IMG/VR virus record: IMGVR_UViG_3300045988_179268
Coordinates: 192,001-256,000 of that record
Source: a virus
Length of the DNA: 64,000 bases
Strand: one strand, 5' to 3'
The notes under the pieces were generated by a model. That model saw only the letters and a program-made list of their open reading frames with translations. It ran no database searches and was not told the origin of the DNA. The translations under genes were made by a program, and so were the position numbers. Shown piece after piece: positions 501 through 57,455 of this stretch (the first letter of the stretch is position 1; each line of letters begins with the position of its first letter).

Positions 501-575
501 TCATACCTGTGCTAACATGGTAATACCCCCATGTGCATGGGGCGCATTGCTCTAACCTGAAAGGAGAATTTAGTT

Positions 576-843: not shown

Positions 844-950
844 GCACCCCTACGCACTGTAATTGTCATTGATATTAAACAGCATCACTAGCCAACTTTT
901 GAAGCGTTCAATATGGCGCTTCAACTATTTCATTGAAGGACTTTTTAATC

Positions 951-1280: not shown

Positions 1281-1314
1281 ACACTATTTTCGTTCTACCT
1301 GGAGGTTTTTAATA

Positions 1315-1752
1315 ATGACTGACACTTTACCACCCGTCTTGACCCCGTTTGAAGCTGGCTTTTCTGTAGCCCTGCTGGTTATTTCCTTGGGTTGCTTTAT
1401 CGCGTTAAAAGGCTCATTGAACCCGCGTAAAAATAACTTCAGACTCAACGTTCTTCTACTGGCTGTTGTAACTAACGGTTTTACCCTAGCGAAGCCTTGG
1501 ATAGCTGACACTTTTGGCATGGACACGTATGGGGTTGTTTCGGGCGCGGTGACTGTTGTTGCCATTATTGGTCTTATGCTGATTATCTTTCATCTTGCAG
1601 GGTTTGCGGTTGGCTCTAATGATGGCGACTGTATTGCGGAGTGTGATAGCCATCATGTATGCATGGCGAGCGGCAGGTGTGCCCATGCCACGAAGGATTC
1701 TGGGACCAACAAGGGTGCTGTTATCCAGCCTGATAAGGATGCGGGGGTATAG
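1315..1752 (+). CDS. small membrane protein (LNPRKNN family), Cys/His-rich tail
   Basis: ATG 1315 after GGAGG; track ORF 1105.. overlaps the previous gene; KGSLNPRKNN motif. Confidence 0.65.
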   Translation: MTDTLPPVLTPFEAGFSVALLVISLGCFIALKGSLNPRKNNFRLNVLLLAVVTNGFTLAKPWIADTFGMDTYGVVSGAVTVVAIIGLMLIIFHLAGFAVGSNDGDCIAECDSHHVCMASGRCAHATKDSGTNKGAVIQPDKDAGV

Positions 1753-1754
1753 GC

Positions 1755-2120
1755 GTGGAGGCTCAGAATGTCTCTCAAGCTATTAGTATTATCCTCCCGA
1801 CAGCTCTTCTAGCGCTTTATGTTTTTGCTATTGGGTTGCCCCGTAAGAAGGCTGGGTTTTATCGTAAGCAAGCTGGTGTTTCTGGACGTGCGCGGCGCGG
1901 TAGGATTCTGAATTTTTGGGGTTTCTTTGCGTTAGGTGCAATTGTGTTGGCTAGTAATATCGTGTTTATGACCGGCTTACTTGCATCTGACGTGATTGCC
2001 GTGTATTCTGTAGCCATTGGCAGTTTCTTACTACTGGTCATGCTCGGTCACGCTATCTATGTGTGGCTGGCTGATGGTAAAGAGACTACGAGTGTAGACG
2101 ACTGTTGCCAACTTTATTGA
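1755..2120 (+). CDS. membrane protein
   Basis: GTG start abutting the previous stop; hydrophobic segments; one of only three TGA stops seen. Confidence 0.5.
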   Translation: MEAQNVSQAISIILPTALLALYVFAIGLPRKKAGFYRKQAGVSGRARRGRILNFWGFFALGAIVLASNIVFMTGLLASDVIAVYSVAIGSFLLLVMLGHAIYVWLADGKETTSVDDCCQLY

Positions 2121-2193
2121 TATTGCGTTCATGGGCTAATATTGATAGCATTAGATACATTAGCCGTAGTCCAAGGATACCAGATGGGAGGGT

Positions 2194-3750: not shown

Positions 3751-3809
3751 TACTGTAATTGTTGCTGAGCTTGACCGATTGAGGGCCGAGCAGGCGACCT
3801 GGAAACAGG

Positions 3810-4256
3810 ATGCAAAAGATTTGGAAGGAAACTCTGATGTTTAACTTTATTACCCATGATATTTACGGCTACGGATTCGCGTTTATTGGTTTTTCTGCAA
3901 TGTTCGTTGGCTTTGTCCTTAAGTATATTGTTGGAATGTTGGATAAGCGCAAGGGAACCGATATTGCCAACATGAAGGAAGCAACCTTTTTGTCGCCTAG
4001 TTGGTTCACGTACTGGAGTCTGGCTATCGCCTTTGGTGTGACTGCTGTAGGTGCTTTCCTTGGCGGTAATGGTCTACTTGATGATACCGCCAAGCAGACG
4101 CTTGTCATTATCACGTTCTTCGTTATGGTGACTGGAATCATCTCTGTGCTGGTAGACATCTTTAAGTCATGGGGTAAGAAGGATGACGATGGCGATAAGG
4201 GTGCGGATGCTAAGCGTGAGATTGAGGCATCTGTGGATAAGGTCGCTGGTAAGTAA
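3810..4256 (+). CDS. membrane protein
   Basis: several hydrophobic segments and a charged tail; start could be ATG 3837; strong terminator follows. Confidence 0.6.
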   Translation: MQKIWKETLMFNFITHDIYGYGFAFIGFSAMFVGFVLKYIVGMLDKRKGTDIANMKEATFLSPSWFTYWSLAIAFGVTAVGAFLGGNGLLDDTAKQTLVIITFFVMVTGIISVLVDIFKSWGKKDDDGDKGADAKREIEASVDKVAGK

Positions 4257-4272
4257 AAGGTACCTCTCGCAG

Positions 4273-4314
4273 GGGGTTTGGTCTATGTGGTGTATAGACC
4301 AAACCCCTTTTTTT
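4273..4314 (+). terminator. intrinsic terminator
   Basis: GGGGTTTGGTCTAT/ATAGACCAAACCCC stem followed by T7. Confidence 0.8.
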
Positions 4315-4353
4315 GTACCCCTGGACTTGTGTCACACCTCACCACCATTAGAC

Positions 4354-4383
4354 TTGCATGATATTTTAAATCTGTGATACGAT
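4354..4383 (+). promoter_or_regulatory. promoter
   Basis: TTGCAT, 18-nt spacer, TGTGATACGAT. Confidence 0.6.
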
Positions 4384-4457
4384 AGGTTTATCAGCAAGAG
4401 GTGAGACGAAATGCTCACCCATACAACAAAACATCCCTCGATTGAAAGGTGACCAAC

Positions 4458-4829
4458 ATGGCACATCTCGACCCGACCCTCTACGCAGTAGCAACCGGCG
4501 AACACCTCGACGGTGTAACCCCTTACGCAACCGCCGGTCAGCGCCTAGATGTGGACTCCTTCGACCTTCACGAAGAACTCGACCCCCTGGAAGAGCTAGA
4601 AGTTCGCGTTGCAGACGAAGAAGAAGGCGGCGTTTACACCCTCCAGCTCTTCGCATATGGCGAACCCCTGGTGGGCTATACCCCCGAAGGCGCGCAGTAT
4701 CACGTCTACGCAACCGTGTACACCCTCCAGTCGGATGTGCGCCTTGTACACGCTTTCCAGTCCCACGTAGGCACGGACGCACTTCTCGCAACGACCTACG
4801 TAGACTCTGAACTGTACTTCCAGTCCTAA
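4458..4829 (+). CDS. acidic hypothetical protein
   Basis: ATG 4458 after GAAAGG (track GTG 4449); promoter at 4354-4383. Confidence 0.6.
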   Translation: MAHLDPTLYAVATGEHLDGVTPYATAGQRLDVDSFDLHEELDPLEELEVRVADEEEGGVYTLQLFAYGEPLVGYTPEGAQYHVYATVYTLQSDVRLVHAFQSHVGTDALLATTYVDSELYFQS

Positions 4830-4867
4830 ACCCAATCGTTTAACCACTTTAAGGAGAGCATCTAACT

Positions 4868-5398
4868 ATGCAGACCCGTATTACTGTTACCCCGGAAACC
4901 CTGGTCAAGGCTCACGAACAGGCACGCAAGATTATGGAACTGACCGGCGGGAAGGCTAATGCAACTTTCACCACCCGCTTGGGCGCACGCATTAAGCCTG
5001 ATGCCCTTAACGAAGTCCTGGGTGCCCTCGTGGAAACCCTGGCAGACGGCAACGCCACCTCCATCTCCATCTACCGAACCGAAGTTTCCCCCATCGAAGC
5101 GGCACAGATGCTTGGTACCGACCGCCCGACCATTATGGCACTCATTCGCGGCGGTGACCTCAACGCTGTATCGAGTGGAAAGTACTACTCCATCAAGGTT
5201 ACCGACCTTGAGAAGGTTGCAGGTAAGGTCGAGTCCATGCGACAGCAGAAGGCTTCGCCTGTAGTGGTCAAGGTTGAGGAACCTCAGGCGGCTAATGAGT
5301 CGATTCAGAAGATTAAGAACGCTGTTTCTGTAATCCGAACCAGTGAAACTTTTGAAAAGGTTCAGCGCGCCACCCTCAAGCACTTCTTCCACGTGTAA
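4868..5398 (+). CDS. putative HTH DNA-binding protein
   Basis: AAGGAG RBS; IEAAQMLGTDRPTIMALIRGGDL resembles an excisionase/MerR-type helix-turn-helix. Confidence 0.6.
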   Translation: MQTRITVTPETLVKAHEQARKIMELTGGKANATFTTRLGARIKPDALNEVLGALVETLADGNATSISIYRTEVSPIEAAQMLGTDRPTIMALIRGGDLNAVSSGKYYSIKVTDLEKVAGKVESMRQQKASPVVVKVEEPQAANESIQKIKNAVSVIRTSETFEKVQRATLKHFFHV

Positions 5399-5465: not shown

Positions 5466-5567
5466 CTATTATGCGACACGGCGTGAGTAGCCGCCCTTGG
5501 AGTCGCTATCTAATCGCGCCTGAGTAAAAAAGAAGCCTGGTAGGAGGGAAAGGGCTTCCTGAGGCGG

Positions 5568-7001
5568 TTAGTAGGCGTACATCATAGCCAACGAGCCTCG
5601 ATGCGACATATAGAACCTCAAGGTGACCAATGTATTATCACTCACACCAGTCACGGCGTTCATCCTCTGAGGGTGGTACGACCCCCACGCCCATGCGGAA
5701 TCATAATTCATGCCCGCAACACGAATGTTTGGGTTATCGAGAGTTGGCTCGCTCATTCCATGAGGCGCGTCAATAGTTAGCTTCTCACGAGTGCCACTAA
5801 CGCCATTATAGACAACGCAATTCTTACCAACTGTGATGCGGTTCTTAACGGTTGTAATGATGCCGCCAGCCACCTGCGCCCCATCGCCAAGCTCAAGGGT
5901 AGCTCCGCCCCTCAGCGCAATCCGACCATCCACAAAAGAATTAGCAGGGATAACGAGCCGCTTATGGGCAGGCACCTCAATATCTCCAACCACAAAAGAA
6001 TCCCTCCATAGCTGGACAGTCTTATTGCGGTGAAGCAGGTAGCCAACATTCCTACCATAGTAAGGCTGGACATAGTAGTGCCCCTTATCGGCAGGGTCAT
6101 TTGAGAGGTAAGAACCTCCATTGGGCATACAACGGCTCTTCTGATACCCATCATTAACAGGTACGTAGTCAAATTTATTATCCCATGCCTTTGTCCAGGC
6201 TTCGTTGGATTTACGCCAATCTCGACGCTGACCACCCTGCAAATAGTAACGCTCACCAAACATGCTAGGCGTATCGCCAGACTCTCCAGCAGTGAAGCGC
6301 GCCCCTAGCGGAGAATAGGGGACGACACGACCCAAAAGGCTGTGAGCATCCAGGTAAGTTAAACCGTGAGGAGGTAGCCCGGTGCCTTTATCGTAAACCT
6401 GACCGTAAACCTTAGCACCCTCAGAAACCTTCACGCTTCCATCAAGCGAAATAATGCTACCAAAGATATGCGCATCCTCTGCGATAGTGATGTCACCCTT
6501 GGCTAGAATCGCCACCGAACACCACAATGGTAACGGTAACTTGTCATAGTCTACGCGGTTCGGGTTGCCCACAAATGCGTTGGAACCCACTAGTACGCCG
6601 CCACCGGCGCTAACACCACCCATAACCAGAGCGCCAGACTTAACGGCTGTAGTCGCGCTTGATAGCATTGAGCCAGTAACTACGCTGTTTACGCCTGCTT
6701 CTAGTCGCCCGTTTGCGGAGTGCATATCGCCTATGACAAAAAGGTTCTCTGGCAGAGCGAAGCTTCGCGGCGTATTGATTGAAGAAAATCCGTAAAGGTC
6801 ATTATTGAGGTAGAGTCGAGCGGCATTATCACAGGTACTTTCCAGGGCGGCATACTCTTTGCGGCTCAACATAGGGGTGACATTCTCACCCTCCCATCGA
6901 ATATTGGAGGGCACAACGTTTTTAGGGGCGTGACTTGTTGCGAATCGCCACCCGCCCAGAGTAGTCTCAGTAGTGACGTTGCCTTTCAGTGGCATAAACA
7001 A
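5568..7001 (-). CDS. beta-helix-like repeat protein, function unknown
   Basis: 477-aa ORF with its own minus-strand promoter copy at 7041-7056; repeated G/V/I-rich segments resembling bactofilin/LbH turns. Confidence 0.6.
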   Translation of the reverse strand: MFMPLKGNVTTETTLGGWRFATSHAPKNVVPSNIRWEGENVTPMLSRKEYAALESTCDNAARLYLNNDLYGFSSINTPRSFALPENLFVIGDMHSANGRLEAGVNSVVTGSMLSSATTAVKSGALVMGGVSAGGGVLVGSNAFVGNPNRVDYDKLPLPLWCSVAILAKGDITIAEDAHIFGSIISLDGSVKVSEGAKVYGQVYDKGTGLPPHGLTYLDAHSLLGRVVPYSPLGARFTAGESGDTPSMFGERYYLQGGQRRDWRKSNEAWTKAWDNKFDYVPVNDGYQKSRCMPNGGSYLSNDPADKGHYYVQPYYGRNVGYLLHRNKTVQLWRDSFVVGDIEVPAHKRLVIPANSFVDGRIALRGGATLELGDGAQVAGGIITTVKNRITVGKNCVVYNGVSGTREKLTIDAPHGMSEPTLDNPNIRVAGMNYDSAWAWGSYHPQRMNAVTGVSDNTLVTLRFYMSHRGSLAMMYAY

Positions 7002-9824: not shown

Positions 9825-10763
9825 ATGGAACTTTCCCACGAGGAAATCGCAGACGCTATGCACGACCACTACCGTGAACTCACGCGACTTGAGTATAGTC
9901 TCGTCAGCGTAAGCCTTGAAGCAAGTAAGGCACTCAAGCACTACACGGCAATTATTACCAAATCCATCAACCTCATGGGGTCAGGTCAGTGGTACCCCTG
10001 GCAGGAAGACCGCCACCTACGCATGGTCTGGGCAGTAGTGAAGCAAACTCTCTACAAGACCGACCACTACATCCACCACCTACACAACGACATGAGTGAA
10101 ATGCTCACTAACTGGCATGAAAACTCCAACTGCGTTGAAACGTGCCAGCTTCTACTAGAAGAAGCTGAACAGTATGCGACCACTCGCTTCATTAAAAACG
10201 CTAAGCAGGTCATCCACCGCTGGAAAAACGTTTCACCCATCATTGACGAGATTCTATCCCAGGAGCGTGTACAGCCAGCCGAATACCCACTAGAGGTTCA
10301 CTGCGACGACTACATCACAATGATTAAGGGGTACCTGGAAGCAATGGATGCGGCTACCGACGGAATGATTCAAGCCATGAACATTGTCCGGCGCACAAAG
10401 ACCGTGTACGACCTATGGGATGCTGAGACAATCAACATGAGCACCGGGAAGCCATACCGCAACCGGCAGTACATCCACGACTTCCTCAAGCTTTTCAATT
10501 ATGCGGCAAATGATTCATACCATGAGTACCTGAACGCCCACCATGAGATTCTTTTCTGTTCCGAGACATACAGTCTAGGCGGTGGCTGGGCTGACAACCC
10601 GGAAGGGTTCGCCGGTCGCCTGGAACGCATCACTAAATGGCAGAACGAAAGCCCTGCCATCACTGTAGAAAGTGCAACTAAGGACTTGCGACGCTACAAG
10701 GAATGGTACCCTGACATGCTTAATCTGGTGAATGAAATCGCGGAGAATAATGGGTTTTATTAG
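9825..10763 (+). CDS. hypothetical protein
   Basis: ATG after GAAAGG, promoter at 9774-9784; a diverged copy of its last 59 nt lies at 10981-11039. Confidence 0.65.
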   Translation: MELSHEEIADAMHDHYRELTRLEYSLVSVSLEASKALKHYTAIITKSINLMGSGQWYPWQEDRHLRMVWAVVKQTLYKTDHYIHHLHNDMSEMLTNWHENSNCVETCQLLLEEAEQYATTRFIKNAKQVIHRWKNVSPIIDEILSQERVQPAEYPLEVHCDDYITMIKGYLEAMDAATDGMIQAMNIVRRTKTVYDLWDAETINMSTGKPYRNRQYIHDFLKLFNYAANDSYHEYLNAHHEILFCSETYSLGGGWADNPEGFAGRLERITKWQNESPAITVESATKDLRRYKEWYPDMLNLVNEIAENNGFY

Positions 10764-10789
10764 GGAAATAAACTAAAACCATTAAAATC

Positions 10790-10800
10790 TGTGATATTAT
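10790..10800 (+). promoter_or_regulatory. promoter motif (drives E1)
   Basis: TGTGATATTAT, 9 nt upstream of E1 P1. Confidence 0.6.
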
Positions 10801-10809
10801 ATTCGATAA

Positions 10810-10979
10810 CACCTCGCCCGTGAGAGACAGGAGAGGTGGATAATCTAAACGGGTAGGTAGCTTCGGTTGCCTGTCAAGACCAGGAAAGTTAGCCCTCTTG
10901 GGTTAGCTGGAGGGTCACCGTCAGGGCGAAGCCCTGGCTCATCCCCTGGGTGGCTCTCCCTTACACACGGGGATGACTC
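10810..10979 (+). ncRNA. E-module E1 (stand-alone transcription unit)
   Basis: own promoter at 10790-10800. P1 CACCTCGCCCGT/ACAGGAGAGGTG, AAACGG, AAGACCAGGA, GGAGGGTCACCGTC, P4 CAGGGC-GAA-GCCCTG. Ends CTCATCCCCTGGGTGGCTC plus TCCCTTACACACGGGGATGACTC. Bidirectional terminator at 11071-11125. Confidence 0.7.
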
Positions 10980-10980
10980 A

Positions 10981-11039
10981 GGTATGCCGACTTGCTAAAT
11001 CTAGTGAATGAAATAGCCGAAAATAACGGGCTTTAATCA
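10981..11039 (+). repeat. orphan diverged copy of the last 59 nt of gene 9825..10763
   Basis: ungapped alignment to 10705-10763 gives 45/59 identical. 8 of 14 differences are synonymous third positions. It reads YADLLNLVNEIAENNGL-stop against YPDMLNLVNEIAENNGFY-stop. Confidence 0.75.
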
Positions 11040-24412: not shown

Positions 24413-25981
24413 ATGCGACACATGTACTTCCTCACAGGGGCACCTGGTTCTGGTAAGAGTACTTACGTCAAGAATGTAATTAAGCGACACAAACTGGGTC
24501 GCGTCATCTCCTGGGATGACTACCGCAATCGTTTCCGTGACCCTCACAATGATGAAACCTACGACATCCCCGTATATGCCGAAGAAGACGGGGTTGCTGT
24601 AGAAACCAGTGTGAAGCCACTCACCAAGGCGCAAGAAAAGATGGCAATCGACATCTCCTATATGGAAACTGAAATGCATGTACGCAACGGTGAAACCATC
24701 TTCATTGATAACACCAACACCAAGGTTCGCAATATGCGCGGCTTCCTCGACCTTGCGGAACGGTACGCCTACAAGGTATGGTTCATCGACATTCAGGGCG
24801 ACCAGACCCTAGAGCAGATTCTTGAACAGAACGCTTACCGCACCGGATACAAGCGAGTCTCTGATGAAATTGTGTCCAACATGCACGCACAGAACATTGA
24901 GCTACGTGCGAACTGGCGCAACATCTTCCAGGACAAGGATAACGTCAAGGGGTATATTGCCCCTGATGCCCTCATTGATAATCTCAAATCCTACGTGAAC
25001 TTCCAGAAGCCTGTTCGTTCACTCACTATGGGCACAGACTTTGGCAGGCAATACGAGCGAGTATGCATCTTTGGCGACGTTCAGGGAATGGGCGACACTC
25101 TAGAAGCCGCAATCCATAGCCTTTCACCTGACAAGGGGCTACACGACATGAGCACCCTTTGGATTTTCATTGGCGACCTGTTCGACCGAGGCAACAACCC
25201 CGTCAAGGTGGCAGAACTTGTACTACCTCACCTGCTTAACAACGCCCGCAACGTGAAGCTCATCAACGGCAACCACGAGTCGCAGGTACTTAACGCATAC
25301 GCAGGCGCTAACACCAATAAAGACACCCTGGACACTATTCGGGCACTTAGGGCGGCTGGGTATGGAGATGCCTGGGTCAAGACGGCTTTAACTGAGGCAC
25401 TACCCGCCGCCGAGCTTCGCCTCGACAGTGTAGATGAAGACGGTAGTATCTACAGCAAGTACCTGTACCTAACCCACGCGGGCGCACACCCGAAACTACA
25501 CGTCGATTCACTACACATCAAGGAGAATGGTTCCGGTAGGGGCAACCCCTACGGTAGCATCTACCGCTTACCTCTCAAGTATTGGGAAACCGGCTATAGT
25601 GACATTGAAGACTTCCGATACGGGTACAGCACCTACAAAGGTTGGGCTGAACCCCTCAACGACCTCTATGCTAAGGCGACCCGCCTGCACGTAGAGAACG
25701 GTGGGCACCCCAAGAGTGAACTTGTCGCAGTGTGTGGGCACCGTGGCGGATACGGCGACCCTGCACAGTACTCGAACCTTATTCCCCTGGAGTCCGAGGT
25801 AGAGTACGAGGGTGGCTCCCTTAGCGTTGCGGTATTTACCGCCCGCAAGGTGAAGCCTGTCACCTTTGGCTATCGGAAGACTTTTAAGCATGTTTGGGAT
25901 TATGAGCGACGCGAATACCCAGGCAATAGTGATGCTGAAAGGTTCTGGGTTTCCACTTCGGAGAAGCGCCAGAGCAAATAG
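24413..25981 (+). CDS. polynucleotide kinase / metallophosphoesterase (Pnkp-like RNA-repair enzyme)
   Basis: P-loop GAPGSGKST N-terminal domain; calcineurin-like motifs GDVQG, GDLFDRG, GNHE in the C-terminal half. Confidence 0.75.
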   Translation: MRHMYFLTGAPGSGKSTYVKNVIKRHKLGRVISWDDYRNRFRDPHNDETYDIPVYAEEDGVAVETSVKPLTKAQEKMAIDISYMETEMHVRNGETIFIDNTNTKVRNMRGFLDLAERYAYKVWFIDIQGDQTLEQILEQNAYRTGYKRVSDEIVSNMHAQNIELRANWRNIFQDKDNVKGYIAPDALIDNLKSYVNFQKPVRSLTMGTDFGRQYERVCIFGDVQGMGDTLEAAIHSLSPDKGLHDMSTLWIFIGDLFDRGNNPVKVAELVLPHLLNNARNVKLINGNHESQVLNAYAGANTNKDTLDTIRALRAAGYGDAWVKTALTEALPAAELRLDSVDEDGSIYSKYLYLTHAGAHPKLHVDSLHIKENGSGRGNPYGSIYRLPLKYWETGYSDIEDFRYGYSTYKGWAEPLNDLYAKATRLHVENGGHPKSELVAVCGHRGGYGDPAQYSNLIPLESEVEYEGGSLSVAVFTARKVKPVTFGYRKTFKHVWDYERREYPGNSDAERFWVSTSEKRQSK

Positions 25982-34858: not shown

Positions 34859-36061
34859 ATGAACCTACTAGAGCATTACCGCGACAACTACAGCCATGTT
34901 GTTCGCCTCAATAAGCATGAGGCAACCGGGCTAACCTGCGTCAAGTACAAGCCTGACGTTTATGACTTTACTGACCCTTACGTCCGAATGGCGCGAGGTC
35001 TAGTCCTCAACGACCAGGGCGACATTATCCTGCGAGGATTCAATAAGTTCTTCAACTGGAAGCAGTACGACCTCAAGACCACGGTAGACCGTAAGTTCAA
35101 GGAAGAGTTTACCCACATGGGGTCATTTGCGCCTGACGAGAAGGTCACCTTCTATGAGAAGCTAGACGGAACCTGCATCATTGTTGGACTCTACGAAGGC
35201 GAATACCTGTTTGCTACTCCCGGCGCTGTTGAAACCCCTAAGTATCAGGAGCCGGTACATCGACTACTAAACGAAGCTCCGCAAGTTAAGGCATGGCTGG
35301 AAGAAAACCCGGACATGTGCCTCATCTTCGAGTACACTTCCCCCTACAACATCATTAACGTGCTGTACGAGGAGGAGAACCTTACTCTCATTGGTCTGGC
35401 AAGTAAGACTTACGGCGACCGTAGCCCCCTGGAAATGCTCGAAGTAGCCGAGAAGCTAAACCTCCCCGCACCGAAGGTCTACCACATGACCATTCCCGAA
35501 GTGTCACAGGTTCAGGAAGAAACCAAGGGCATTGAAGGATTCATTGCTGTAAACCAGTATGGGCACCTCTTGAAGTTCAAGACCGAGGACTGGTTCATGC
35601 ACAGCAACGACTTCCTCCACCCCTATGTGAACAAGTCGTCACGTCCCGCCGTCCGCCGAATCATCCAGGCAGTCGCAAACGGAACGATTGACGACATGCT
35701 GGCACGCCAGGCAACCCTATCCGAGAAGGATATTGAGGATAAGATTTCCGTTGTTGTTGAATGTGTTGAAGAGCTTCTAGCTGAGGGGCAGGAGAAGTAC
35801 CTCCAGCTCAAGCAGGCGCTTGACTCTGCGCCGACCGAGGAAGCTAAGTATGAGGCTCGTGTAAAGTTCTTCGACCCGAAGAGCAAGAGTGCAACGAACC
35901 CTCAGATGGCACTAGTGACCACTCACCTGCGAGGCAAGACGTTCTCCCAGCTTATCGAAGAACACCCGGCACGCCTCAAGTCCTTCACCCAGGACATCAT
36001 GGAGCGACTTATCGCCCGAGGGGTCAGCGTGACCATCGAAAAGCCGCGCCCCAAGCAGTAA
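34859..36061 (+). CDS. RNA ligase
   Basis: nucleotidyltransferase motifs EKLDGT (KxDG), IFEY, EGFIAV, LKFK. Confidence 0.8.
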   Translation: MNLLEHYRDNYSHVVRLNKHEATGLTCVKYKPDVYDFTDPYVRMARGLVLNDQGDIILRGFNKFFNWKQYDLKTTVDRKFKEEFTHMGSFAPDEKVTFYEKLDGTCIIVGLYEGEYLFATPGAVETPKYQEPVHRLLNEAPQVKAWLEENPDMCLIFEYTSPYNIINVLYEEENLTLIGLASKTYGDRSPLEMLEVAEKLNLPAPKVYHMTIPEVSQVQEETKGIEGFIAVNQYGHLLKFKTEDWFMHSNDFLHPYVNKSSRPAVRRIIQAVANGTIDDMLARQATLSEKDIEDKISVVVECVEELLAEGQEKYLQLKQALDSAPTEEAKYEARVKFFDPKSKSATNPQMALVTTHLRGKTFSQLIEEHPARLKSFTQDIMERLIARGVSVTIEKPRPKQ

Positions 36062-36241
36062 GTGACGCAATAGGGGTAGATAGGAAAGCCTGAAACATAC
36101 GATGAGTGGTTGGAACGGATGGAAGACCTTACCGGCGTAAACCCCGCCACATACCTACCTCTCTAATTTAGGTGCCCATCAAGTACCTCATTCGATATGG
36201 GAGATGTGATAAACTGACCTTGTAACGAGTGAGGTACTTTT

Positions 36242-37444
36242 ATGCCCACTGAAATTTCTGATTCCTACTTGGAGGGAATAATGGCTCTAGCTGACAGCAT
36301 TGGCATGGTTAAAGGAAGCAGGCGTAATGTGAGGGCTTCCTTACCTAAGCGCGTCTCTGACGCTGTGATTGCTAATACTTACGGTATTGACTCCCAGATT
36401 GCGATGTGTGCGGTTGCTACCCGTAAGGCGGAGACTCACATCATGGAGTTGGGCGGACGTTACGCCACGGTAGAAGAATACAACGAATGGCTTGAAACCT
36501 ACCTTAAGCTGGGTGGGACAATTGATGTCTACCATGATTACCCGATGCCACTGAACGCCTTTTTCTTCTTCGCTAACCCATCATGGCTAGACCTTCATAC
36601 AGCATTTGAGTATTCGTTACCTATTAATGTGCTTGCAAGCCCTAACTACAACCTTAAAAGCCACCCCTTCAAAGGCTCCAATAATATTGATTGCATGGTC
36701 AGCTTCTTCGGGTGGGCTCCCACTAGTGAAGGTGACCTCTCCCCGGCGATTAGCGGCAACAACACAGTGCATGTTTGGAGTGACACGGTGGATAGGGTTC
36801 TCATGCGTGAGGATGCCGAAGATGCCGCTCTGTCTGCCCGGCTGAGGACTATGTATGATGAGTGGCATGACGACTCTACCCTTGGGAATATTGATGGGCA
36901 GATGCGTGCCCATCACATGTCAGGGGCAGGCTCGCCGCTTGTGCAGGCGTTGCGTGAATCTGTTGGTACGGTATTTAGTGAACCTGCAACGAGTAGCGAT
37001 TATGCTGAGTGGTTGCAGGAGTATGTGAACTATCTGGACAGCACGGGTGGCAAGCCAAGTGACTCACAGTATGGGAATCTGGTACATTCTGAACCTTACG
37101 CCACCTTAGCGTATATGAACGGTTTCAATCTTGATGCGAGGGCTTTTGTTCGTGTTTACAAGTTTGCTTTGCCGTTCTCTGTGCTACCGTGGGCATACGA
37201 TACTGAATGCTTCCTCTTATTGGATAAGGGCATTGATGCTGTTGAGTATGCAGACAATATTGCCCGGATGCAGGCAAGGTATGGTTTTGACAACCCTCAC
37301 ATCGTTGTTTTTGGATGGAATGCCGAAGGTGTCCCTGTTGTAATTAACGGTATAGCCCCTATTTATCGTGAGTGTCTTGACGCCCCCTCTAGGGCTATTA
37401 TCATGACTGCTTTCGATAAGGATGTTTGGGCATCCTATAGCTAG
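36242..37444 (+). CDS. hypothetical protein
   Basis: track ORF. Confidence 0.65.
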   Translation: MPTEISDSYLEGIMALADSIGMVKGSRRNVRASLPKRVSDAVIANTYGIDSQIAMCAVATRKAETHIMELGGRYATVEEYNEWLETYLKLGGTIDVYHDYPMPLNAFFFFANPSWLDLHTAFEYSLPINVLASPNYNLKSHPFKGSNNIDCMVSFFGWAPTSEGDLSPAISGNNTVHVWSDTVDRVLMREDAEDAALSARLRTMYDEWHDDSTLGNIDGQMRAHHMSGAGSPLVQALRESVGTVFSEPATSSDYAEWLQEYVNYLDSTGGKPSDSQYGNLVHSEPYATLAYMNGFNLDARAFVRVYKFALPFSVLPWAYDTECFLLLDKGIDAVEYADNIARMQARYGFDNPHIVVFGWNAEGVPVVINGIAPIYRECLDAPSRAIIMTAFDKDVWASYS

Positions 37445-47346: not shown

Positions 47347-47490
47347 CTTCCAATGGAGCCAGGTTAGCACCCATAATTGGGTGGCTAAGTGAAGAATCAA
47401 CATGGGAAAGACATACTCATTAAGGTTCTTTACTTAGTCACCCTTCTTAATACCTTATGCGGCATGTGTGACATGTCACAAAAACTAGGC

Positions 47491-47520
47491 TTGTGCAGTA
47501 GTAAAAATATGTGGTACACT
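47491..47520 (+). promoter_or_regulatory. promoter
   Basis: TTGTGC, 18-nt spacer, TGTGGTACACT. Confidence 0.65.
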
Positions 47521-47585
47521 TTTTGTAGCAAGTGAAGGGAAAGCCTTCACAGAGAATCAATGCAATCTACCGAAAGGTGCCCACA

Positions 47586-48025: not shown

Positions 48026-48036
48026 TGTGCTACACT
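48026..48036 (+). promoter_or_regulatory. promoter motif (drives E2/E3)
   Basis: TGTGCTACACT. Confidence 0.55.
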
Positions 48037-48046
48037 AAAAATATCA

Positions 48047-48189
48047 CACCTCGCCTGTGAGAGACGGGAGAGGTGGATAATCTAAACGGATAGGTGGCAT
48101 CGGTTACCTGTCAAGACCAGGATAACTGGCATCAGACAGTTTGAGGGTCACCGTTAAGGAAAATCCTTAACTCATCTACCGAATGACTC
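48047..48189 (+). ncRNA. E-module E2
   Basis: begins 11 nt after the -10 at 48026-48036; P1, TCTAAACGG, TCAAGACCAGGA, TTGAGGGTCACCGT, P4 GTTAAGGA-AAA-TCCTTAAC; ends CTCATCTACCGAATGACTC. Confidence 0.7.
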
Positions 48190-48231
48190 TGGGTAATACG
48201 GATTAGCGGGGTAATCACCCTTGCCAGGAAG

Positions 48232-48333
48232 CGTATTCTCCGTACACGCGGGGATGACTCCGGTTTCTGCCCCGTAAATGGGTTAGCCTCATGGCACGCC
48301 GCATCGTATTCTCCGTACACGCGGGGATGACTC
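48232..48333 (+). CRISPR. two identical type I-E-like repeats, non-canonical 44-nt interval
   Basis: CGTATTCTCCGTACACGCGGGGATGACTC at 48232-48260 and 48305-48333 (29/29 identical); the interval itself contains a degenerate repeat, TTTCTGCCCCGTAAATGGGTTAGCCTC. Confidence 0.5.
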
Positions 48334-48447
48334 TATAAACGGGTGGGCAACATTCGTGTCGCACGTCAAGACCAGGAGAGTTAGGTAACTAGCTTGAGGG
48401 TCACCGCCTAGTGAAACACTAGACCCACCCCGCGCAGGGGATGGCTC
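48334..48447 (+). ncRNA. E-module E3 (lacks P1; a full repeat sits in its place)
   Basis: TATAAACGG, GTCAAGACCAGGA, TTGAGGGTCACCG, CTAGTG-AAA-CACTAG; ends CCCACCCCGCGCAGGGGATGGCTC. Confidence 0.65.
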
Positions 48448-48568
48448 CCCGAGTCAGCAACAGGCAACCCAGACATCTTAACCGCGTTCCCTATATACGC
48501 GGGATGACTCACAGGCTCACCCTCACATACTCGCTGGGTGGATTCTCCAACATACGTAGGGCTGGCTC
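48419..48568 (+). CRISPR. mini-array: E3 terminal repeat plus two degenerate repeats
   Basis: repeat ends at 48447, 48510 and 48568 (periods 63 and 58 nt); repeats CGCGTTCCCTATATACGCGGGATGACTC and GGATTCTCCAACATACGTAGGGCTGGCTC. Confidence 0.45.
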
Positions 48569-48604
48569 ATACCAGGTGTGTGACACAGATAACACAAAAT
48601 CAGG

Positions 48605-48634
48605 TTGCGTACCATGAAAAACATGTGGTACACT
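48605..48634 (+). promoter_or_regulatory. tRNA/E operon promoter
   Basis: TTGCGT, 18-nt spacer, TGTGGTACACT; upstream palindrome TGTGTGACACA. Confidence 0.7.
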
Positions 48635-48718
48635 TGATATATAAGGCGCGGGGGTTTGAGAAAGCCGCCAATGCAAAGCTCATTGATAACTATATAGGGT
48701 AAAAACTATTGAACATAA

Positions 48719-49260: not shown

Positions 49261-49287
49261 CCGCAACAAAATAATACGAAACCAGGC

Positions 49288-49316
49288 TTGCAAACCACAA
49301 AAACATGTGGTACACT
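49288..49316 (+). promoter_or_regulatory. tRNA/E operon promoter
   Basis: TTGCAA, 17-nt spacer, TGTGGTACACT. Confidence 0.7.
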
Positions 49317-49327
49317 GGTTTACATAG

Positions 49328-49398
49328 GCCCATCTAGCTTAATGTAAAGCAACAGTCTTCAAAACTGTGAGATGTCGGTTCAAGTCCGGCGGTGGGTG
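49328..49398 (+). tRNA. tRNA with UCA anticodon (UGA-reading; suppressor or Trp-like)
   Basis: acceptor GCCCATC/GGTGGGT, D arm GCTT/AAGC, anticodon arm ACAGT-CTTCAAA-ACTGT, T arm GTCGG-TTCAAGT-CCGGC, discriminator G. Confidence 0.8.
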
Positions 49399-49447
49399 CT
49401 TGCAAGTAACAAAACCGGAGTTCTAGCCGAAAGTGGCGTAACTTGCG

Positions 49448-50064: not shown

Positions 50065-50202
50065 TCTTACAGTCTGGTTCCTTTTTTGCGCCCATGTGGG
50101 CTGACTGGGAATTACTTATATGAAGAAAGAAGAGATGTGGCATCACTAACATGCACTGCTTTATCTCTGTTTTTTCAGTGACACAGATAACACAAAATCG
50201 AG

Positions 50203-50232
50203 TTGCAAACCACGAAAAACATGTGGTACACT
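50203..50232 (+). promoter_or_regulatory. tRNA/E operon promoter
   Basis: TTGCAA, 18-nt spacer, TGTGGTACACT. Confidence 0.7.
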
Positions 50233-50314
50233 TTATATATGAGACGTGAGGGCTTGAAAGAGTCCCCGACGCAAAAGCTCATTGAAAACCTTATAGAGTA
50301 AACTATTTAATCAA

Positions 50315-51227: not shown

Positions 51228-51309
51228 TCAGCCTCATTAGGTAACCTATTGAGGCACCCTTATTGCAATAGGGGAGCCTTCGGGCTTCTGGCTTTTATCA
51301 CTCATTCTT

Positions 51310-51339
51310 TTGCGAGATTGAGTGTTGGTGTGGTATACT
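51310..51339 (+). promoter_or_regulatory. tRNA operon promoter
   Basis: TTGCGA, 18-nt spacer, TGTGGTATACT. Confidence 0.65.
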
Positions 51340-51358: not shown

Positions 51359-51438
51359 GCGCTTGTGGCGGAACTGGCAGACGCGGCGGACTTAAAATCC
51401 GCTTCTTCGGAGTGTGGGTTCGAGTCCCACCTGGCGCA
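51359..51438 (+). tRNA. tRNA-Leu(TAA)
   Basis: anticodon arm GCGGA-CTTAAAA-TCCGC, long variable arm, T arm GTGGG-TTCGAGT-CCCAC. Confidence 0.85.
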
Positions 51439-51468
51439 CGCAACCACCCTTAACTGGGAGGTTTATAT

Positions 51469-51542
51469 TCCCTTGTAGCTCAATTGGCAGATGCGCCCGA
51501 CTGTTAATCGGGAGGTTACTGGTTCGAGTCCAGTCTGGGGAG
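51469..51542 (+). tRNA. tRNA-Asn(GTT)
   Basis: acceptor TCCCTTG/CTGGGGA, anticodon arm CCCGA-CTGTTAA-TCGGG, T arm ACTGG-TTCGAGT-CCAGT. Confidence 0.8.
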
Positions 51543-51594
51543 CTTACGTCACTTATGCGTGGCGTTGATACCTTAGCTTTTTTGTTAAGGTTCT

Positions 51595-51670
51595 GGTCTG
51601 TTAGCTCAGTGTTGGTTAGAGCACCGCCCTGTCACGGCGGAGGCCGCGGGTTCGAGCCCCGTACAGACCG
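51595..51670 (+). tRNA. tRNA-Asp(GTC)
   Basis: acceptor GGTCTGT/ACAGACC, anticodon arm CCGCC-CTGTCAC-GGCGG, T-loop TTCGAGC. Confidence 0.85.
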
Positions 51671-51692
51671 CGTATAGTTTTTTTGGCTATGC

Positions 51693-51831
51693 CTCTCGCC
51701 TGTGAGAGACGGGAGAGAGTAAAAACGGACAGGTAGCTTCGGTTACCTGTCAAGACCAGGATAGCGGGGTAACCTGCTTGAGGGTCACCGTCTGACAAAA
51801 TGTTAGACCCAGCCCACGTAGGGGATGGCTC
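51693..51831 (+). ncRNA. E-module E10
   Basis: follows tRNA-Asp; all blocks present; ends CCCAGCCCACGTAGGGGATGGCTC; followed by a 32-nt spacer and a full repeat. Confidence 0.75.
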
Positions 51832-51892
51832 CTTGGACTCGAAGTTTTGACGAATAGGGAGTCCGTTTTCCCAGCACACGCGGGAGTGGCTC
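51803..51892 (+). CRISPR. one-spacer unit with exact 29+32 nt geometry after E10
   Basis: terminal repeat ends at 51831, spacer 51832-51863 (32 nt), repeat CGTTTTCCCAGCACACGCGGGAGTGGCTC at 51864-51892; period 61 nt. Confidence 0.6.
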
Positions 51893-51932
51893 ACCGTGAC
51901 CTCCTGTGTGATACAGGTAACATAAAAACGGC

Positions 51933-51962
51933 TTGCATACCATAGAAACTATATGGTACACT
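51933..51962 (+). promoter_or_regulatory. tRNA operon promoter
   Basis: TTGCAT, 18-nt spacer, TATGGTACACT; upstream palindrome CCTGTGTGATACAGG. Confidence 0.65.
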
Positions 51963-52029
51963 TGCTATATATGGTTCGGGGAAACCTGAAAGACCGATAC
52001 GCTATTTCTTAATTGAATGAATTTTTTTT

Positions 52030-52315: not shown

Positions 52316-52552
52316 CGTAGCATGAAGGGATGTAGCTAATCCTTTCGTAATACACCGGATAAACACTATTCAGAAGGTCGTAGGTTAAAATCCTGCCACG
52401 TGCCACATTGCACGTGTAGCTCGGTGTTATAAGAGCGTCTGGACGGTGCCGGTTTAAGCCATACACAGGGGAAGTGACCTACACACTTCCATAGGGGTAG
52501 CGCCCCGGCTGTCTTGTAGGATAAGGGTACCTCTTAGCGGGGGTGCTCTCAT

Positions 52553-54495: not shown

Positions 54496-54638
54496 GATTT
54501 TCCCCGTACACGCGGGGATGGCTCCTGGACCCTCAAACTTGCTAGAGTAGAGCACGTATTTTCCCCGTACACGCGGGGATGGCTCTAACGTCAAGCCTAT
54601 TAGCGTTTACGTTTTCCCTTGTATGCGTGGGGTGACTC
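54496..54638 (+). CRISPR. three-repeat, two-spacer type I-E-like mini-array
   Basis: R1 54496-54524 and R2 54557-54585 are 28/29 identical (ATTTTCCCCGTACACGCGGGGATGGCTC). Spacer 1 is 32 nt (period 61). Degenerate terminal repeat at 54610-54638 after a 24-nt spacer. Confidence 0.65.
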
Positions 54639-55274: not shown

Positions 55275-56309
55275 ATGTTTGTTTGCGAGGATGTGTCCCC
55301 TGTTGGTTCTGGCAAGGTTCAGTCTATTTCTTTGGGGGAGTCATTTTTGCCTGGTGACGTGATGGATGTATTGAATCCGTCTATTCCGAGTGCGGCGGCG
55401 CGTATGGTATTGATTTATAAGCGTGATGTTGTCTCTGCTGGTGCGCAGTTGGTGGGCGTTTTCACTGTTTCTGCCGACCCTGCTACTTTTGCGGGTGGTG
55501 TTGATGGTCAGGGTATTATTCCAGGTGTTGCCTCTGGTTCGCTTGTTGAGCGTGTCGTTGAGAGTGTTCCTGTGCAGGGTGGTGATTACGCCTCACATGC
55601 GTTGAAGGTTGCGTCCTGGTTGTCTAATTCTGGTGTGCCGCTGGGTTATGGTGGTGATTTGCGCAATGGTTTTGCTTTTACTGCGTTTGAATCTGCTGAG
55701 GGCGCATGTGCTGTGCCTGATGCGTTTGAGTTTTTGGATGCGGCGGGTGTGTCTGTCCCTTGGTATAACGAGGGTAACTATTTCGGGTACACTGTTTCTG
55801 GTGTTAGTAAGATTAGTTCCCTTAAGGGTGTGGGTTCTGTGTTGGGCGACCTTGGTGACGTTGGTGTGGACTCCCGCGCGCTGAGTCAGGGGGTTGATGG
55901 TGCTGGCGACAATGCTTATGTCGCGTGGTTGCTGTGGGGTGTTGATGATGGTGGTCGTGTTGGGGATGTGCATCTTGTGGCTGGTGACCCGACGCTAAAT
56001 GGGTTCCCGACTGTGGGGTTGCCGTTTATTAAGGGCGCTCCTCAGCTTGTGGGTGTCCCGGTTGAGGAGTATGGTTATCGTTTGGTGACGAAAATGTTCA
56101 CTAATTTCACTTCTGTTTTTGTCACTATTAAGTCCCCTTTGTTTAATGCTAATCGTGTTTGTTATGATGCTGGTAAGGGTTTGTATTCTTTGCCTGTTGT
56201 GGTGACTTTGGGGTCTGAGTCGCCATTGTGGGTGCCTGGCGATTTGGGGGCGCGTATGCGCTATGTTAAGGCTGTTTTGGGGCGCGATGGGGCTTTAAAT
56301 ATCTTGTAA
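55275..56309 (+). CDS. G/V-rich paralog A in the GT-biased island
   Basis: ATG 55275 after GAAAGG (track TTG 55257); C-terminal YDAGKGLYSLPVVV matches the two downstream genes. Confidence 0.55.
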   Translation: MFVCEDVSPVGSGKVQSISLGESFLPGDVMDVLNPSIPSAAARMVLIYKRDVVSAGAQLVGVFTVSADPATFAGGVDGQGIIPGVASGSLVERVVESVPVQGGDYASHALKVASWLSNSGVPLGYGGDLRNGFAFTAFESAEGACAVPDAFEFLDAAGVSVPWYNEGNYFGYTVSGVSKISSLKGVGSVLGDLGDVGVDSRALSQGVDGAGDNAYVAWLLWGVDDGGRVGDVHLVAGDPTLNGFPTVGLPFIKGAPQLVGVPVEEYGYRLVTKMFTNFTSVFVTIKSPLFNANRVCYDAGKGLYSLPVVVTLGSESPLWVPGDLGARMRYVKAVLGRDGALNIL

Positions 56310-56388
56310 ATAGCCTTTTTGGGGAGCTTGTCATACTTTTGTGTGGCAGGCTCCTTTTTGTGTGTTTTCCGGGTTTTGGGCGGGTTGG

Positions 56389-56399
56389 TGTGGTAGACT
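56389..56399 (+). promoter_or_regulatory. promoter motif
   Basis: TGTGGTAGACT. Confidence 0.55.
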
Positions 56400-56462
56400 G
56401 GTGGTGGGGTTGCGTCGGGTCTTGACGTTGCCCCCTTTTTTCTATCTTTTTCTACTATTTTT

Positions 56463-57455
56463 TTGGAGGTTGTTGTGGCTTTTGATTGGTTGAGGGGCAT
56501 TTTTGGTGGTTCTGGTGATGGTGAGCCTGTTGAGGGTGGTGCTTTTAGGGAGTCGGGGGTTTCTGATGCTGATGTGATTGCTGAGTTGGAGGCTTCGTTG
56601 GGTGCGCCGTCTGGTGGTGTTGATGTTTCGCGTCTGGTTAGTTGTGAGTTTGGGTTGCCGGGGCATGTGTTGTTTTTGTTTAAGCCTGTGGGTGGTGGGT
56701 TTGTTTTGGATGGTGTGGTGTGTGTTGGTGTGAGTGGTCGTGGTGTTGGTGGTGTTGGTAATGGTCGTGGGGTGGTTTGTTTTGGGCAGGAGCCTGTGTT
56801 GGAGGTGTTGGGTGGTTCTAGGGTTTATTCTGTGGAGGATAATTTTAGTGAGGTTGGGCGTGGGTTGTATGGTGAGGTTTTGAGTGAGGGGTGTTTGTTT
56901 GTTGGGGTTGGTGAGTCTGGTGGTTTGGATTTGTTGAGGGTTGTTGAGTCGGATGGTGTTGATTTTATTTTGGGTGACCCGTCGTTGGTGGGTTTGGAGG
57001 TGGAGTCTTTTGATGGGGGTGAGTTTGTGTGTGTGATTGCGCATAATGTGCGTGTTGATTTGTCTGCTTCGGTTTCTGTTGGTGAGGCTGTTGGTTCTGT
57101 GGGTGATGTGGGTTCTGTGGCGCGTGAGTATGTTGGTGTTGAGGGTGCTATGGTCGGTTGGTTCTGTTGGTGGGCTTCGGCGGCTGGCGTTGAGTGGGGG
57201 TATGTTTTGGGTGACCCGCGTGGGGGTGGTTCGCCGGTGATGGATGTTCCGCTTGGCGGTATTTCGGGGTTGTTTAGTGGGCTTATTGCTGGTGTTGGCA
57301 GTATTGAGGATGTTGGTGTTAGGGTTGCTGGTTCGTTTAGGAATACTCGTTTCGGTAATGTTGAGTGGGTTGCTCCTTTGTATGATGATGGTCGTGCTTA
57401 TTATGATGAGGCGGCGCAGTTGTATGCGATGCCGGTGGTGACTGTTCTGCATTAG
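56463..57455 (+). CDS. G/V-rich paralog B in the GT-biased island (start uncertain, GTG 56475 possible)
   Basis: open frame in a stretch that is about 85 percent G+T; C-terminal YDDGRAYYDEAAQLYAMPVV. Confidence 0.5.
   Translation: MEVVVAFDWLRGIFGGSGDGEPVEGGAFRESGVSDADVIAELEASLGAPSGGVDVSRLVSCEFGLPGHVLFLFKPVGGGFVLDGVVCVGVSGRGVGGVGNGRGVVCFGQEPVLEVLGGSRVYSVEDNFSEVGRGLYGEVLSEGCLFVGVGESGGLDLLRVVESDGVDFILGDPSLVGLEVESFDGGEFVCVIAHNVRVDLSASVSVGEAVGSVGDVGSVAREYVGVEGAMVGWFCWWASAAGVEWGYVLGDPRGGGSPVMDVPLGGISGLFSGLIAGVGSIEDVGVRVAGSFRNTRFGNVEWVAPLYDDGRAYYDEAAQLYAMPVVTVLH

Follow-up and report, generated by a model that had tools for sequence, protein, structure and literature searches.

Among described systems, the type V-N system of Rothia dentocariosa stands closest to the locus analyzed here. 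In bacteria, the tracrRNA and crRNA of its effector family, Cas12n, are separate molecules, and they were artificially joined by GAAA in a single-guide RNA (sgRNA) (PMC12216341). The Cas12n tracrRNA overlaps the open reading frame (ORF), and its scaffold was reported to consist of five stems and a pseudoknot, which in R. dentocariosa Cas12n (RdCas12n) is formed by positions -4 to -2 pairing near stem 1 (PMC12216341). RdCas12n was found to prefer the protospacer-adjacent motif (PAM) 5'-AAC, and a guide of 20 nt was used for Cas12n (PMC12216341). Cas12n is regarded as an early intermediate in the transition from TnpB, which has one fused omega-RNA, to CRISPR Cas12, which has a split tracrRNA and crRNA.

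Here, we analyzed computationally a 64,000-nt stretch of viral DNA (positions 192,001 to 256,000 of IMG/VR record IMGVR_UViG_3300045988_179268), which we refer to as the window. It represents a tRNA region of a phage, in which all 26 tRNA genes lie on the + strand, and a near-identity search of isolated phages returned no near relative of it, tRNA fragments being the only matches. The window also contains 14 copies, every one on the + strand, of a conserved structured RNA, the E-module, and eight of the 14 begin 4-32 nt past a tRNA. One copy, E10, starts 20 nt past the end of tRNA-Asp and is physically fused to a CRISPR-type guide unit, in which a handle derived from a repeat is followed by a spacer and then by a repeat. 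Both the guide unit and its fusion to a conserved structured RNA within a tRNA operon had been proposed in the first-pass annotation of this DNA, and both were confirmed, the former by the sequence and by a family-wide peak in repeat spacing. We estimate at roughly 80% the probability that the E-module is a tracrRNA/omega-RNA-type scaffold of Cas12n (type V-N) and the E10 unit a natural sgRNA. The parts of the unit and its surroundings are as follows.

51272-51289: terminator-like hairpin closing the preceding transcription unit, ahead of the E10 promoter-like site
51310..51339, + strand: promoter-like site, TTGCGA-18-TATACT with TG; putative start of the E10-bearing transcription unit
51359..51671, + strand: tRNA-Leu(taa), tRNA-Asn(gtt), and tRNA-Asp(gtc), immediately 5' of E10
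51692-51831, + strand: E10 as a whole, hairpin and ATGGCTC included (from the sequence)
51692..51811, + strand: E10 scaffold core, stems P1-P4 (covariance model, covariation)
51693-51719, + strand: stem P1; its loop UGUGAGAGA includes the GAG of the putative pseudoknot
51720-51728, + strand: conserved joint TAAAAACGG
51729-51750, + strand: stem P2
51751-51761, + strand: conserved joint CAAGACCAGGA
51762-51779, + strand: stem P3
51780-51790, + strand: conserved joint GAGGGTCACCG
51791-51808, + strand: stem P4
51812..51824, + strand: P5 mini-hairpin GCCCACGTAGGGG (GCCC-ACGUA-GGGG) (sequence, fold, Rothia locus, and sgRNA description)
51825-51831, + strand: handle ATGGCTC, directly after the P5 hairpin
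51825..51832, + strand: probable repeat 3' end including an extra base, ATGGCTCC (by analogy with the Rothia repeat)
51832-51863, + strand: 32-nt spacer CTTGGACTCGAAGTTTTGACGAATAGGGAGTC
51833..51863, + strand: guide TTGGACTCGAAGTTTTGACGAATAGGGAGTC, in the register one base later
51864-51892 (to 51893 in the shifted register), + strand: terminal repeat CGTTTTCCCAGCACACGCGGGAGTGGCTC (repeat matrix, 36.5 bits; fold)

The handle ends at 51831 and is followed after 32 nt by the 29-nt repeat, which gives a period of 61 nt from handle end to handle end, and the coordinates originally assigned to these parts were right. To judge from the Rothia repeat, the repeat boundary probably lies one base beyond that first drawn, at the end of ATGGCTCC, which would make the guide 31 nt long. 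The terminal repeat of E10 is degenerate, with a bulged stem and GTGGCTC instead of ATGGCTC (handle GTGGCTCA); the stem is intact in the orthologous repeat of the related locus L136. Judging from the sequence, P5 stands where the anti-repeat:repeat duplex (stem 5) would be and appears to be a natural tracr-crRNA junction; because this mini-hairpin would occupy the place of the duplex, we read E10 as a natural tracr-crRNA fusion, similar in kind to the engineered RdCas12n sgRNA and to the omega-RNA of TnpB. In addition, positions -4 to -2 of E10 (CUC) are complementary to the GAG of the P1 loop, and the two can pair as the likely counterpart of the Cas12n pseudoknot.

The scaffold family and the Cas12n tracrRNA

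The E-module was without a family match in Rfam, both at the gathering threshold and at E<=1. Relatives were collected by means of an E-module core pattern, which yielded two IMG/VR jumbo contigs and more than 115 metagenome stretches, many of the latter originating from contigs of 160-360 kb. Nine viral-contig pattern matches with a fixed length of 47 nt proved to be a protein-coding gene and were discarded, as were 19 high-GC metagenome pattern matches attributable to chance; with the chance matches dropped, the related set comprised 103 loci with a mean GC content of 51%. The E-module fold is backed by compensatory changes in P2, P3, and P4 among the window copies and 45 diverse copies. Scaffold and array are joined in two forms: in that of E10, the spacer comes directly after the mini-hairpin and handle, and in the other, a conserved extension (...AGTCAGGAAG) is followed by a full repeat.

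A covariance model was built with the phage E-modules as its sole input. It placed E10 at 51692-51838 with 133.7 bits (E=1.6e-36) and gave scores of 112-138 bits for 12 of the 14 window scaffolds. The same model matched the 3' end of the R. dentocariosa cas12n gene full length, with 59.4 bits (E=2e-15), at positions 5510-5675 of locus L173, where the stop codon of cas12n is at 5629. The 3' end of R. mucilaginosa cas12n scored 47.6 bits, and the range for R. mucilaginosa and two further loci (L178 and L179), likewise matched full length, was 43-48 bits. Blocks common to the Rothia sequence were also recognized by eye, namely CTCGCC...GGGAGAG, TAAACGG, GTCAAGACCA, GAGGGTCACCGT, the P4 hairpin, and the ...TAGTCAGCAAGC extension. 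Covariation links the handle to the P1 loop: the pairing is CUC:GAG in the phages and UUC:GAA in R. dentocariosa, and R. mucilaginosa, L178, and L179 all have GCC:GGC. This amounts to three compensatory states from few independent lineages.

At least 16 related loci have, on the E-module strand, a gene for a protein of about 522 amino acids, which in L156, for example, is located at 2245-3810. In the 16 loci that cover its 3' end, the E-module anchor lies 71-91 nt past the stop codon and repeats come after it (16/16), and in all 16, no more than about 25 nt separate the stop codon from the start of the scaffold. The product of this gene was identified by PADLOC as Cas12u4 (E=1e-164) and matched RdCas12n of R. 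dentocariosa (PDB 9J09/9UDI) over its full length (E=6e-173); its nearest cellular homologues are Rothia proteins, with 53-58% identity. Most relatives have their own cas12n adjoining the scaffolds, and Rothia chromosomes encode Cas12n together with a homologous tracrRNA. A TnpB-like gene of 518 amino acids in the window (2194-3750) was considered as an effector and rejected: its best PDB match, UnCas12m4a, is distant (E=2.6e-4), and it adjoins a scaffold in 0 of 7 loci.

Repeats, guides, and their targets

A repeat matrix detected 11 sites in the window (12 matches, two being overlapping registers at one site), all on the + strand, where matches scored 15-44 bits; the - strand of the window had no sites, with a top score of 8.9 bits. 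In 928 kb of related loci, 270 matches fell on the strand of the E-module, compared with 2 on the opposite strand. The family repeat consensus is CGTTTTCCCCGTACACGCGGGGATGGCTC, in which the six terminal bases are best conserved (TGGCTC, 84-97% per position among 185 family repeats). The phage repeat folds into a self-contained hairpin of the type I-E kind, whose 6-bp C/G stem and tetraloop are followed by a tail of 7-8 nt; no such self-contained hairpin is formed by the R. dentocariosa repeat. The array beside R. dentocariosa cas12n has the repeat GTCTGCCCCGCGTGTGCATGGATGGTTCC and a 61-nt period, and the R. mucilaginosa repeat, GTTTTCCCCGTATGCGCGGGGATGAGCCC, shares 24 of 29 bases with the phage consensus and folds into the same "I-E-like" hairpin. 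Rothia arrays beside cas12n are composed of 29-nt repeats and 32-nt spacers. When an anti-repeat for the downstream repeats was sought in the scaffold, the only complementarity found was an unconvincing one of 5 nt (CGTTT:AAACG).

Across the 103 related phage loci, the distance from repeat to repeat shows a sharp peak at 61 nt (52 of 104 spacings). The distance from the E-module handle to the handle of the next repeat also has its mode at 61 nt (11/51), with a second cluster at 44-50 nt, and pseudo-spacers of 15-21 nt were present in 16 of the 51 fused units of the phage family. Periods in the window range from 42 to 73 nt and are exactly 61 nt in two cases only, and some window scaffolds have degenerate handles. 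The pairing of a 29-nt repeat with a 32-nt spacer, which had been noticed in E10, is found there and recurs in the family, and this arrangement of the guide unit occurs far more often than chance would produce.

Spacers belonging to 12 independent families have matches, on one strand or the other, in other phages of the family. When the PAM was tallied by spacer family rather than by match, with some counts derived from orthologous targets, AA directly adjoined the 5' side of the matched sequence in 10 to 12 of the 12 families and was followed by C in most; this C coincides with the last base of the repeat. The consistent PAM in related phages that the first-pass annotation had envisaged is thus present, and the AA(C) motif of the family spacers is the PAM published for RdCas12n. 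For the E10 guide itself, no protospacer was found: searches of IMG/VR with the exact 32-mer and 19-mer of the E10 spacer yielded no target, nor was one for E10 found when 62 family spacers were compared with 50,697 phage records by BLAST, nor did the window and 122 related sequences contain one, and the comparison with plasmids gave just one 21-nt chance match. Matches of spacers to related phages, also envisaged at the outset, were found for the family but not for the spacer of E10.

Among the targets of the family spacers are tRNA genes of phages (antisense), copies of the scaffold, and the cas12n 3' end. Since the guides mostly match related phages at such sites, we suggest that the system serves phage-phage conflict. 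The orthologous arrays of closely related phages carry different spacers, indicating that spacers turn over. Orthologues of the E10 guide were found in L136, with a single deletion, and in the related loci L098 and L084. In L098 and L084, the first 19 of the 32 spacer nucleotides (i.e., 18 nt of the guide) are identical to those of E10, and all five differences lie in the last 13 positions, for which the chance is about 0.006. This PAM-proximal conservation fits a nuclease that reads about 20 nt.

Source of the effector and alternative explanations

No cas gene for the unit is present in the window, as the first-pass annotation had stated: tblastn of Cas12n against the window gave no match, and no type I-E cas families were detected among its 65 ORFs, nor among 123 ORF-cluster representatives from the 103 related loci. 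The scaffolds and repeats other than those of the E10 unit are arranged as follows.

10810..11035, + strand: solitary scaffold not in the tRNA region; its repeat spans 10951-10979
48047..48568, + strand: site of cas12n in relatives; here scaffold E48113, extension, repeats, and a truncated scaffold, with cas12n missing
48232 and 48305, + strand: repeats at the cas12n site; degenerate ones at 48483 and 48540
48309-48454, + strand: 5'-truncated scaffold at the cas12n site
48832, 49021, 49535, 49863, 50546, 51085, 52924, 53978, 54307, and 54879, + strand: scaffold copies amid the tRNAs, in addition to E10 (range to 55036)
49190, 53121, 53175, 54147, 54496, and 54557, + strand: repeats tied to the scaffolds of the tRNA region

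The syntenic order in L136 is scaffold, cas12n, scaffold, and array, and its equivalent in the window is collapsed to 48026-48262, followed by the 5'-truncated scaffold; from this comparison, the cas12n of the window has been deleted between two scaffold copies. Among the Cas12n homologues listed, none that is JGI-sourced lies on a contig as long as the 319-kb (319,371-bp) contig of the window, which suggests that the whole phage is without cas12n. Because the window has no cas12n, the effector would have to come from another source, namely elsewhere in the phage genome, a co-infecting relative, or the host, which, to judge from protein and repeat similarity, is most likely Rothia (oral).

We propose that one promoter transcribes the E10 unit along with tRNA-Leu, tRNA-Asn, and tRNA-Asp, and that the 5' end of the E10 RNA would be freed by tRNA 3' processing. 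The RNA would then load into a Cas12n protein, which would be directed to double-stranded DNA having 5'-AAC beside the guide match. The predicted target of E10 would be AAC-flanked TTGGACTCGAAGTTTTGA, and about the first 18-20 nt of the guide would be expected to matter. A bolder scenario, which we consider tentative and rather unlikely as a whole, is that a phage lacking cas12n loads about a dozen tRNA-flanked sgRNAs into the Cas12n of its Rothia host, thereby diverting the nuclease from its own crRNAs and against rival phages, with tRNA enzymes releasing the guides and with the copy at 10.8 kb acting as an RNA-guided homing element. The guide of that copy (10981-11035) duplicates, in diverged form, the 3' end of the gene upstream of it.

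The scaffold copies might instead be decoy or anti-CRISPR RNAs, by analogy with Racr RNAs and Cracr arrays, and soak up or mis-program a chromosomal Cas12n of the host after the loss of cas12n. RNA anti-CRISPRs and viral crRNA-like arrays have been documented (PMC10651486; bioRxiv 10.1101/2024.10.29.618823), and the presence of 14 scaffolds and zero cas12n in the window, the chromosomal Cas12n of Rothia with its homologous tracrRNA, and the absence of a detectable repeat within 220 nt from about 45% of 252 scaffolds of the phage family all agree with such a role. However, most relatives have cas12n by their scaffolds, which points to guiding as the ancestral role, the guides match rival phages with a consistent PAM, and the conserved PAM-proximal part of the E10 guide would be needless for a pure decoy. 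We consequently give this explanation little credence.

It is also conceivable, but quite improbable, that the units are decaying relics, non-functional since the deletion of cas12n and passively transcribed with the tRNAs. The deletion at the syntenic site, which left a 5'-truncated scaffold, and the irregular periods of the window would be expected of a relic, as would the degeneration of several handles and repeats, the terminal repeat of E10 among them. Against this, the family-model scores of 12 of the 14 window scaffolds indicate little decay, the CUC:GAG pairing is retained, and the E10 guide is one deletion away from that of L136 and has the same first 18 nt in more distant relatives.

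The first-pass annotation had assigned the unit to type I-E, such that host Cas6e would cut the hairpins, a 61-nt crRNA would enter the host Cascade, and the E-module would be an unrelated leader. The repeat has the canonical I-E shape, the 29/32 spacing is that of I-E, and the observed PAM belongs to the class AAN, which is also typical of type I-E. The last base of the E. coli I-E repeat is PAM-derived, and that of the phage repeat behaves in the same manner. Furthermore, similar repeats are found in genuine I-E arrays, such as that of Aquimonas (GTTTCCCCCGCGTACGCGGGGATGGCCCC). The hairpin, tail, and spacer size of the E10 unit do have the I-E form, but they are common to the Rothia V-N arrays and thus do not discriminate: the Rothia arrays that flank cas12n, with no I-E genes within 4 kb, have this geometry and this type of repeat too. 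Because Rothia V-N arrays show them, the features that suggested type I-E are taken to be native to type V-N.

Bacterial genomes were also scanned for the repeat with the strict pattern TYCCCCGN6CGGGGATGRCTC. Among 185,579 species genomes, 40 single matches were obtained, some of which are variant repeats inside true I-E arrays, and no array had the phage handle as its consensus. The handle is a poor anchor for such a scan, and the R. mucilaginosa repeat deviates exactly there. The bacterial loci fetched for I-E cas genes contained arrays only. The I-E assignment is not supported, since the fused RNA is a homologue of the Cas12n tracrRNA that adjoins cas12n in 16/16 relatives; nor is the proposed use of host Cas6e and Cascade, given that the handle corresponds to the Cas12n pseudoknot strand and the PAM to the AAC of Cas12n. 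With a P5 stem of just 3-4 bp in E10 and no I-E Cas protein in the window or the family loci as well, a type I-E crRNA gene is very improbable. The I-E look of the arrays (a 29-nt hairpin repeat, a 32-nt spacer, and a last repeat base that matches the PAM) was probably acquired through spacer uptake by a type I-E adaptation module in trans, and a secondary role of host I-E adaptation or of Cas6e on the I-E-like repeats is compatible with the Cas12n model.

Significance and comparison with known systems

In a limited search of the searchable literature, we found no account of Cas12n guides that are naturally fused, phage-borne, and tRNA-embedded, and the literature matches to the sequence strings were primers only. 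The phage family has both RNA layouts for one effector, that is, guide-fused scaffolds and scaffolds with repeat-spacer arrays, and at least one scaffold copy has a guide that is the flank of its own insertion. With the two layouts side by side and a flank-derived guide, the proposed "RNA splitting" step may be directly observable in nature. The family would also represent a class 2 guide system multiplexed in tRNA operons, with spacers aimed at the tRNA genes, scaffolds, and cas12n of rival phages, and the retention of guides after the loss of the nuclease gives rise to the idea of a phage hijacking host Cas12n. At about 140 nt, compared with 194 nt for the engineered RdCas12n scaffold, the natural single-guide scaffolds are compact and may offer ready designs for a miniature genome editor that has an A-rich PAM.

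The system most similar to that of the phages is type V-N of R. dentocariosa (RdCas12n, PDB 9J09/9UDI; Nat Commun 2025, PMC12216341), whose effector is homologous to that of the phage relatives (54% identity, E=6e-173). The scaffolds are homologous as well: they have the joints TAAACGG, GTCAAGACCA, and GGGTCACCGT in common, and both are located at the ORF 3' end. In both systems, repeat positions -4 to -2 form a 3-bp pseudoknot with the stem-1 loop, the array is of the 29/32 kind, and the PAM is AAC. Unlike its bacterial counterpart, the phage system is located in the tRNA region of a jumbo phage, with 14 scaffold copies in the window and no cas12n there. About 40% of the phage scaffolds are fused straight to the 3' end of a repeat, whether or not another repeat is detectable downstream, in contrast to the separate tracrRNA and crRNA of bacteria; the handle is ATGGCTCC in the phages and ATGGTTCC in R. 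dentocariosa.

TnpB guides arise as a copy of the DNA flanking the insertion. The omega-RNA of TnpB (reRNA; IS200/IS605 and IS607) resembles the phage units in that scaffold and 3' guide are in one RNA, in that the scaffold begins at the 3' end of the nuclease gene, and in that the guide of the 10810-11035 copy duplicates DNA flanking the insertion. It differs in that the phage guide is followed by CRISPR repeats, spacers turn over, and copies are located in tRNA operons; neither transposon ends nor TnpA were identified for the phage scaffolds.

Mini-CRISPR arrays and solitary repeat units of viruses are reported to be similarly short, to have no adjacent cas genes, and to carry spacers against close relatives (Medvedeva 2019; Faure 2019). 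They are composed of repeats and spacers only and rely on class 1 effectors of the host, whereas each phage array begins with a tracrRNA-type scaffold of class 2, and the effector gene is present in most relatives. Racr and Cracr (PMC10651486; bioRxiv 10.1101/2024.10.29.618823) likewise involve a repeat-mimicking phage noncoding RNA that engages Cas proteins encoded elsewhere, and short pseudo-spacers are another shared feature; unlike in Racr, the mimic here would comprise an entire tracrRNA scaffold instead of a repeat, and E10 has a conserved spacer. Complementarity to a cas promoter was not found in the phage units. In engineered polycistronic tRNA-gRNA arrays, tRNAs alternate with sgRNAs within one transcript, and tRNA processing releases the guides. 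The phage region shows the same alternation, but in a natural, phage-borne, and Cas12n-type form, in which guide release by tRNA processing is putative.

Scaffolds as putative targets and a solitary copy

Within the window, one copy of the Cas12n tracrRNA-type scaffold stands alone, and its layout looks TnpB-style, with the putative guide formed by the insertion flank.
10705-11035: whole region of interest
10810-10968: solitary scaffold
10951-10979: its 29-nt CRISPR-type repeat
The "guide" 3' of this scaffold was found to copy the upstream gene's 3' end at the 80% level, and AAT lies immediately 5' of the homologous site in that gene end. Five of the first 20 guide positions differ from the phage's own resident copy, and only 2 of 20 differ from the alleles of two related phage loci, L081 and L133. 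Judged from these sequences, the element is possibly engaged in RNA-guided homing.

The scaffolds of rival phages, in turn, appear from sequence matches to be spacer targets. A spacer of the related locus L091 agrees with a scaffold core in 28 of 32 nt, with an AA flank. In the window, the spacer at 54525-54556, which separates its two best repeats (54496 and 54557), contains 12 nt complementary to the scaffolds' own conserved AGTTTGAGGGTC joint. Separately, a structured region also has a spacer match.
52320-52550, + strand: structured region 3' of tRNA-Lys, weakly resembling a Y RNA (YrlA)
At 28 bits, the YrlA match stays under the threshold. L128, also a related phage locus, has a spacer that matches the antisense strand of 52337-52368 with 3 mismatches and a GAA flank.

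Transcription units, tRNAs and neighboring genes

47465-47521, 48579-48635, 49271-49316, 50177-50233, 51907-51963: repeated 57-nt unit
49328-49399, + strand: 72-nt tRNA called "SeC", anticodon TCA
24413-25981 and 34859-37444, + strand: polynucleotide kinase/phosphatase-RNA ligase fusion and T4 Rnl1-type RNA ligase match
55500-57320: G/T-rich degenerate repeat region (TGGTGTTGGTGG...), just 3' of the tRNA array

Each copy of the 57-nt unit heads one tRNA/scaffold transcription unit and consists, in order, of a palindrome (TGTGACA...TGTCACA type), TTGC.., a spacer of ~17 nt and GGTACACT; the copies look like phage promoters of one family, all sharing an operator. An opal (UGA) suppressor is the likelier identity of the tRNA called "SeC" and, if so, would be a hint that this phage reassigns a stop codon or reads through it. 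The kinase/phosphatase-RNA ligase fusion and the Rnl1-type ligase, whose match possibly comes from one of two 400-aa ORFs at 34859-37444, together suggest a kit for repairing tRNAs close to the tRNA array, and hence pressure exerted by anticodon nucleases of the host. The degenerate repeats fall within ORFs of ~330-350 aa, which may encode glycine/valine-rich repeat proteins.

TnpB/Cas12-like genes and a second lineage

2194-3750, + strand: TnpB/Cas12-like protein, 518 aa
16092-17644, - strand: IS605-orfB-I RNA (Rfam, 195.9 bits) and 438-aa ORF

The 518-aa protein has an intact-looking RuvC, and TNB was the sole domain recognized; among PDB entries, UnCas12m4a matches it best (E=2.6e-4). Homologues with 61-80% identity occur at varying positions in 7 related loci, in none of which does a scaffold adjoin them. 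The IS605-orfB-I RNA lies directly 3' of the 438-aa ORF, in which RuvC-like motifs were judged by eye; this ORF lacks a zinc-finger end, gave no TnpB match in Pfam or PADLOC, and possibly represents a relative of TnpB that is degenerate or nuclease-dead.

ENA ERZ28625018 scaffold_8 (160 kb), 511-5134: L179, multiple scaffolds and cas12n

L179, a cas12n locus whose Cas12n is 61% identical, represents a second lineage at greater distance, with GTGAGCTCCCTGTGTGTGGGGATGAGCC as its repeats. Several scaffold copies surround cas12n there too, and multiplied Cas12n scaffolds are thus not limited to one phage clade.
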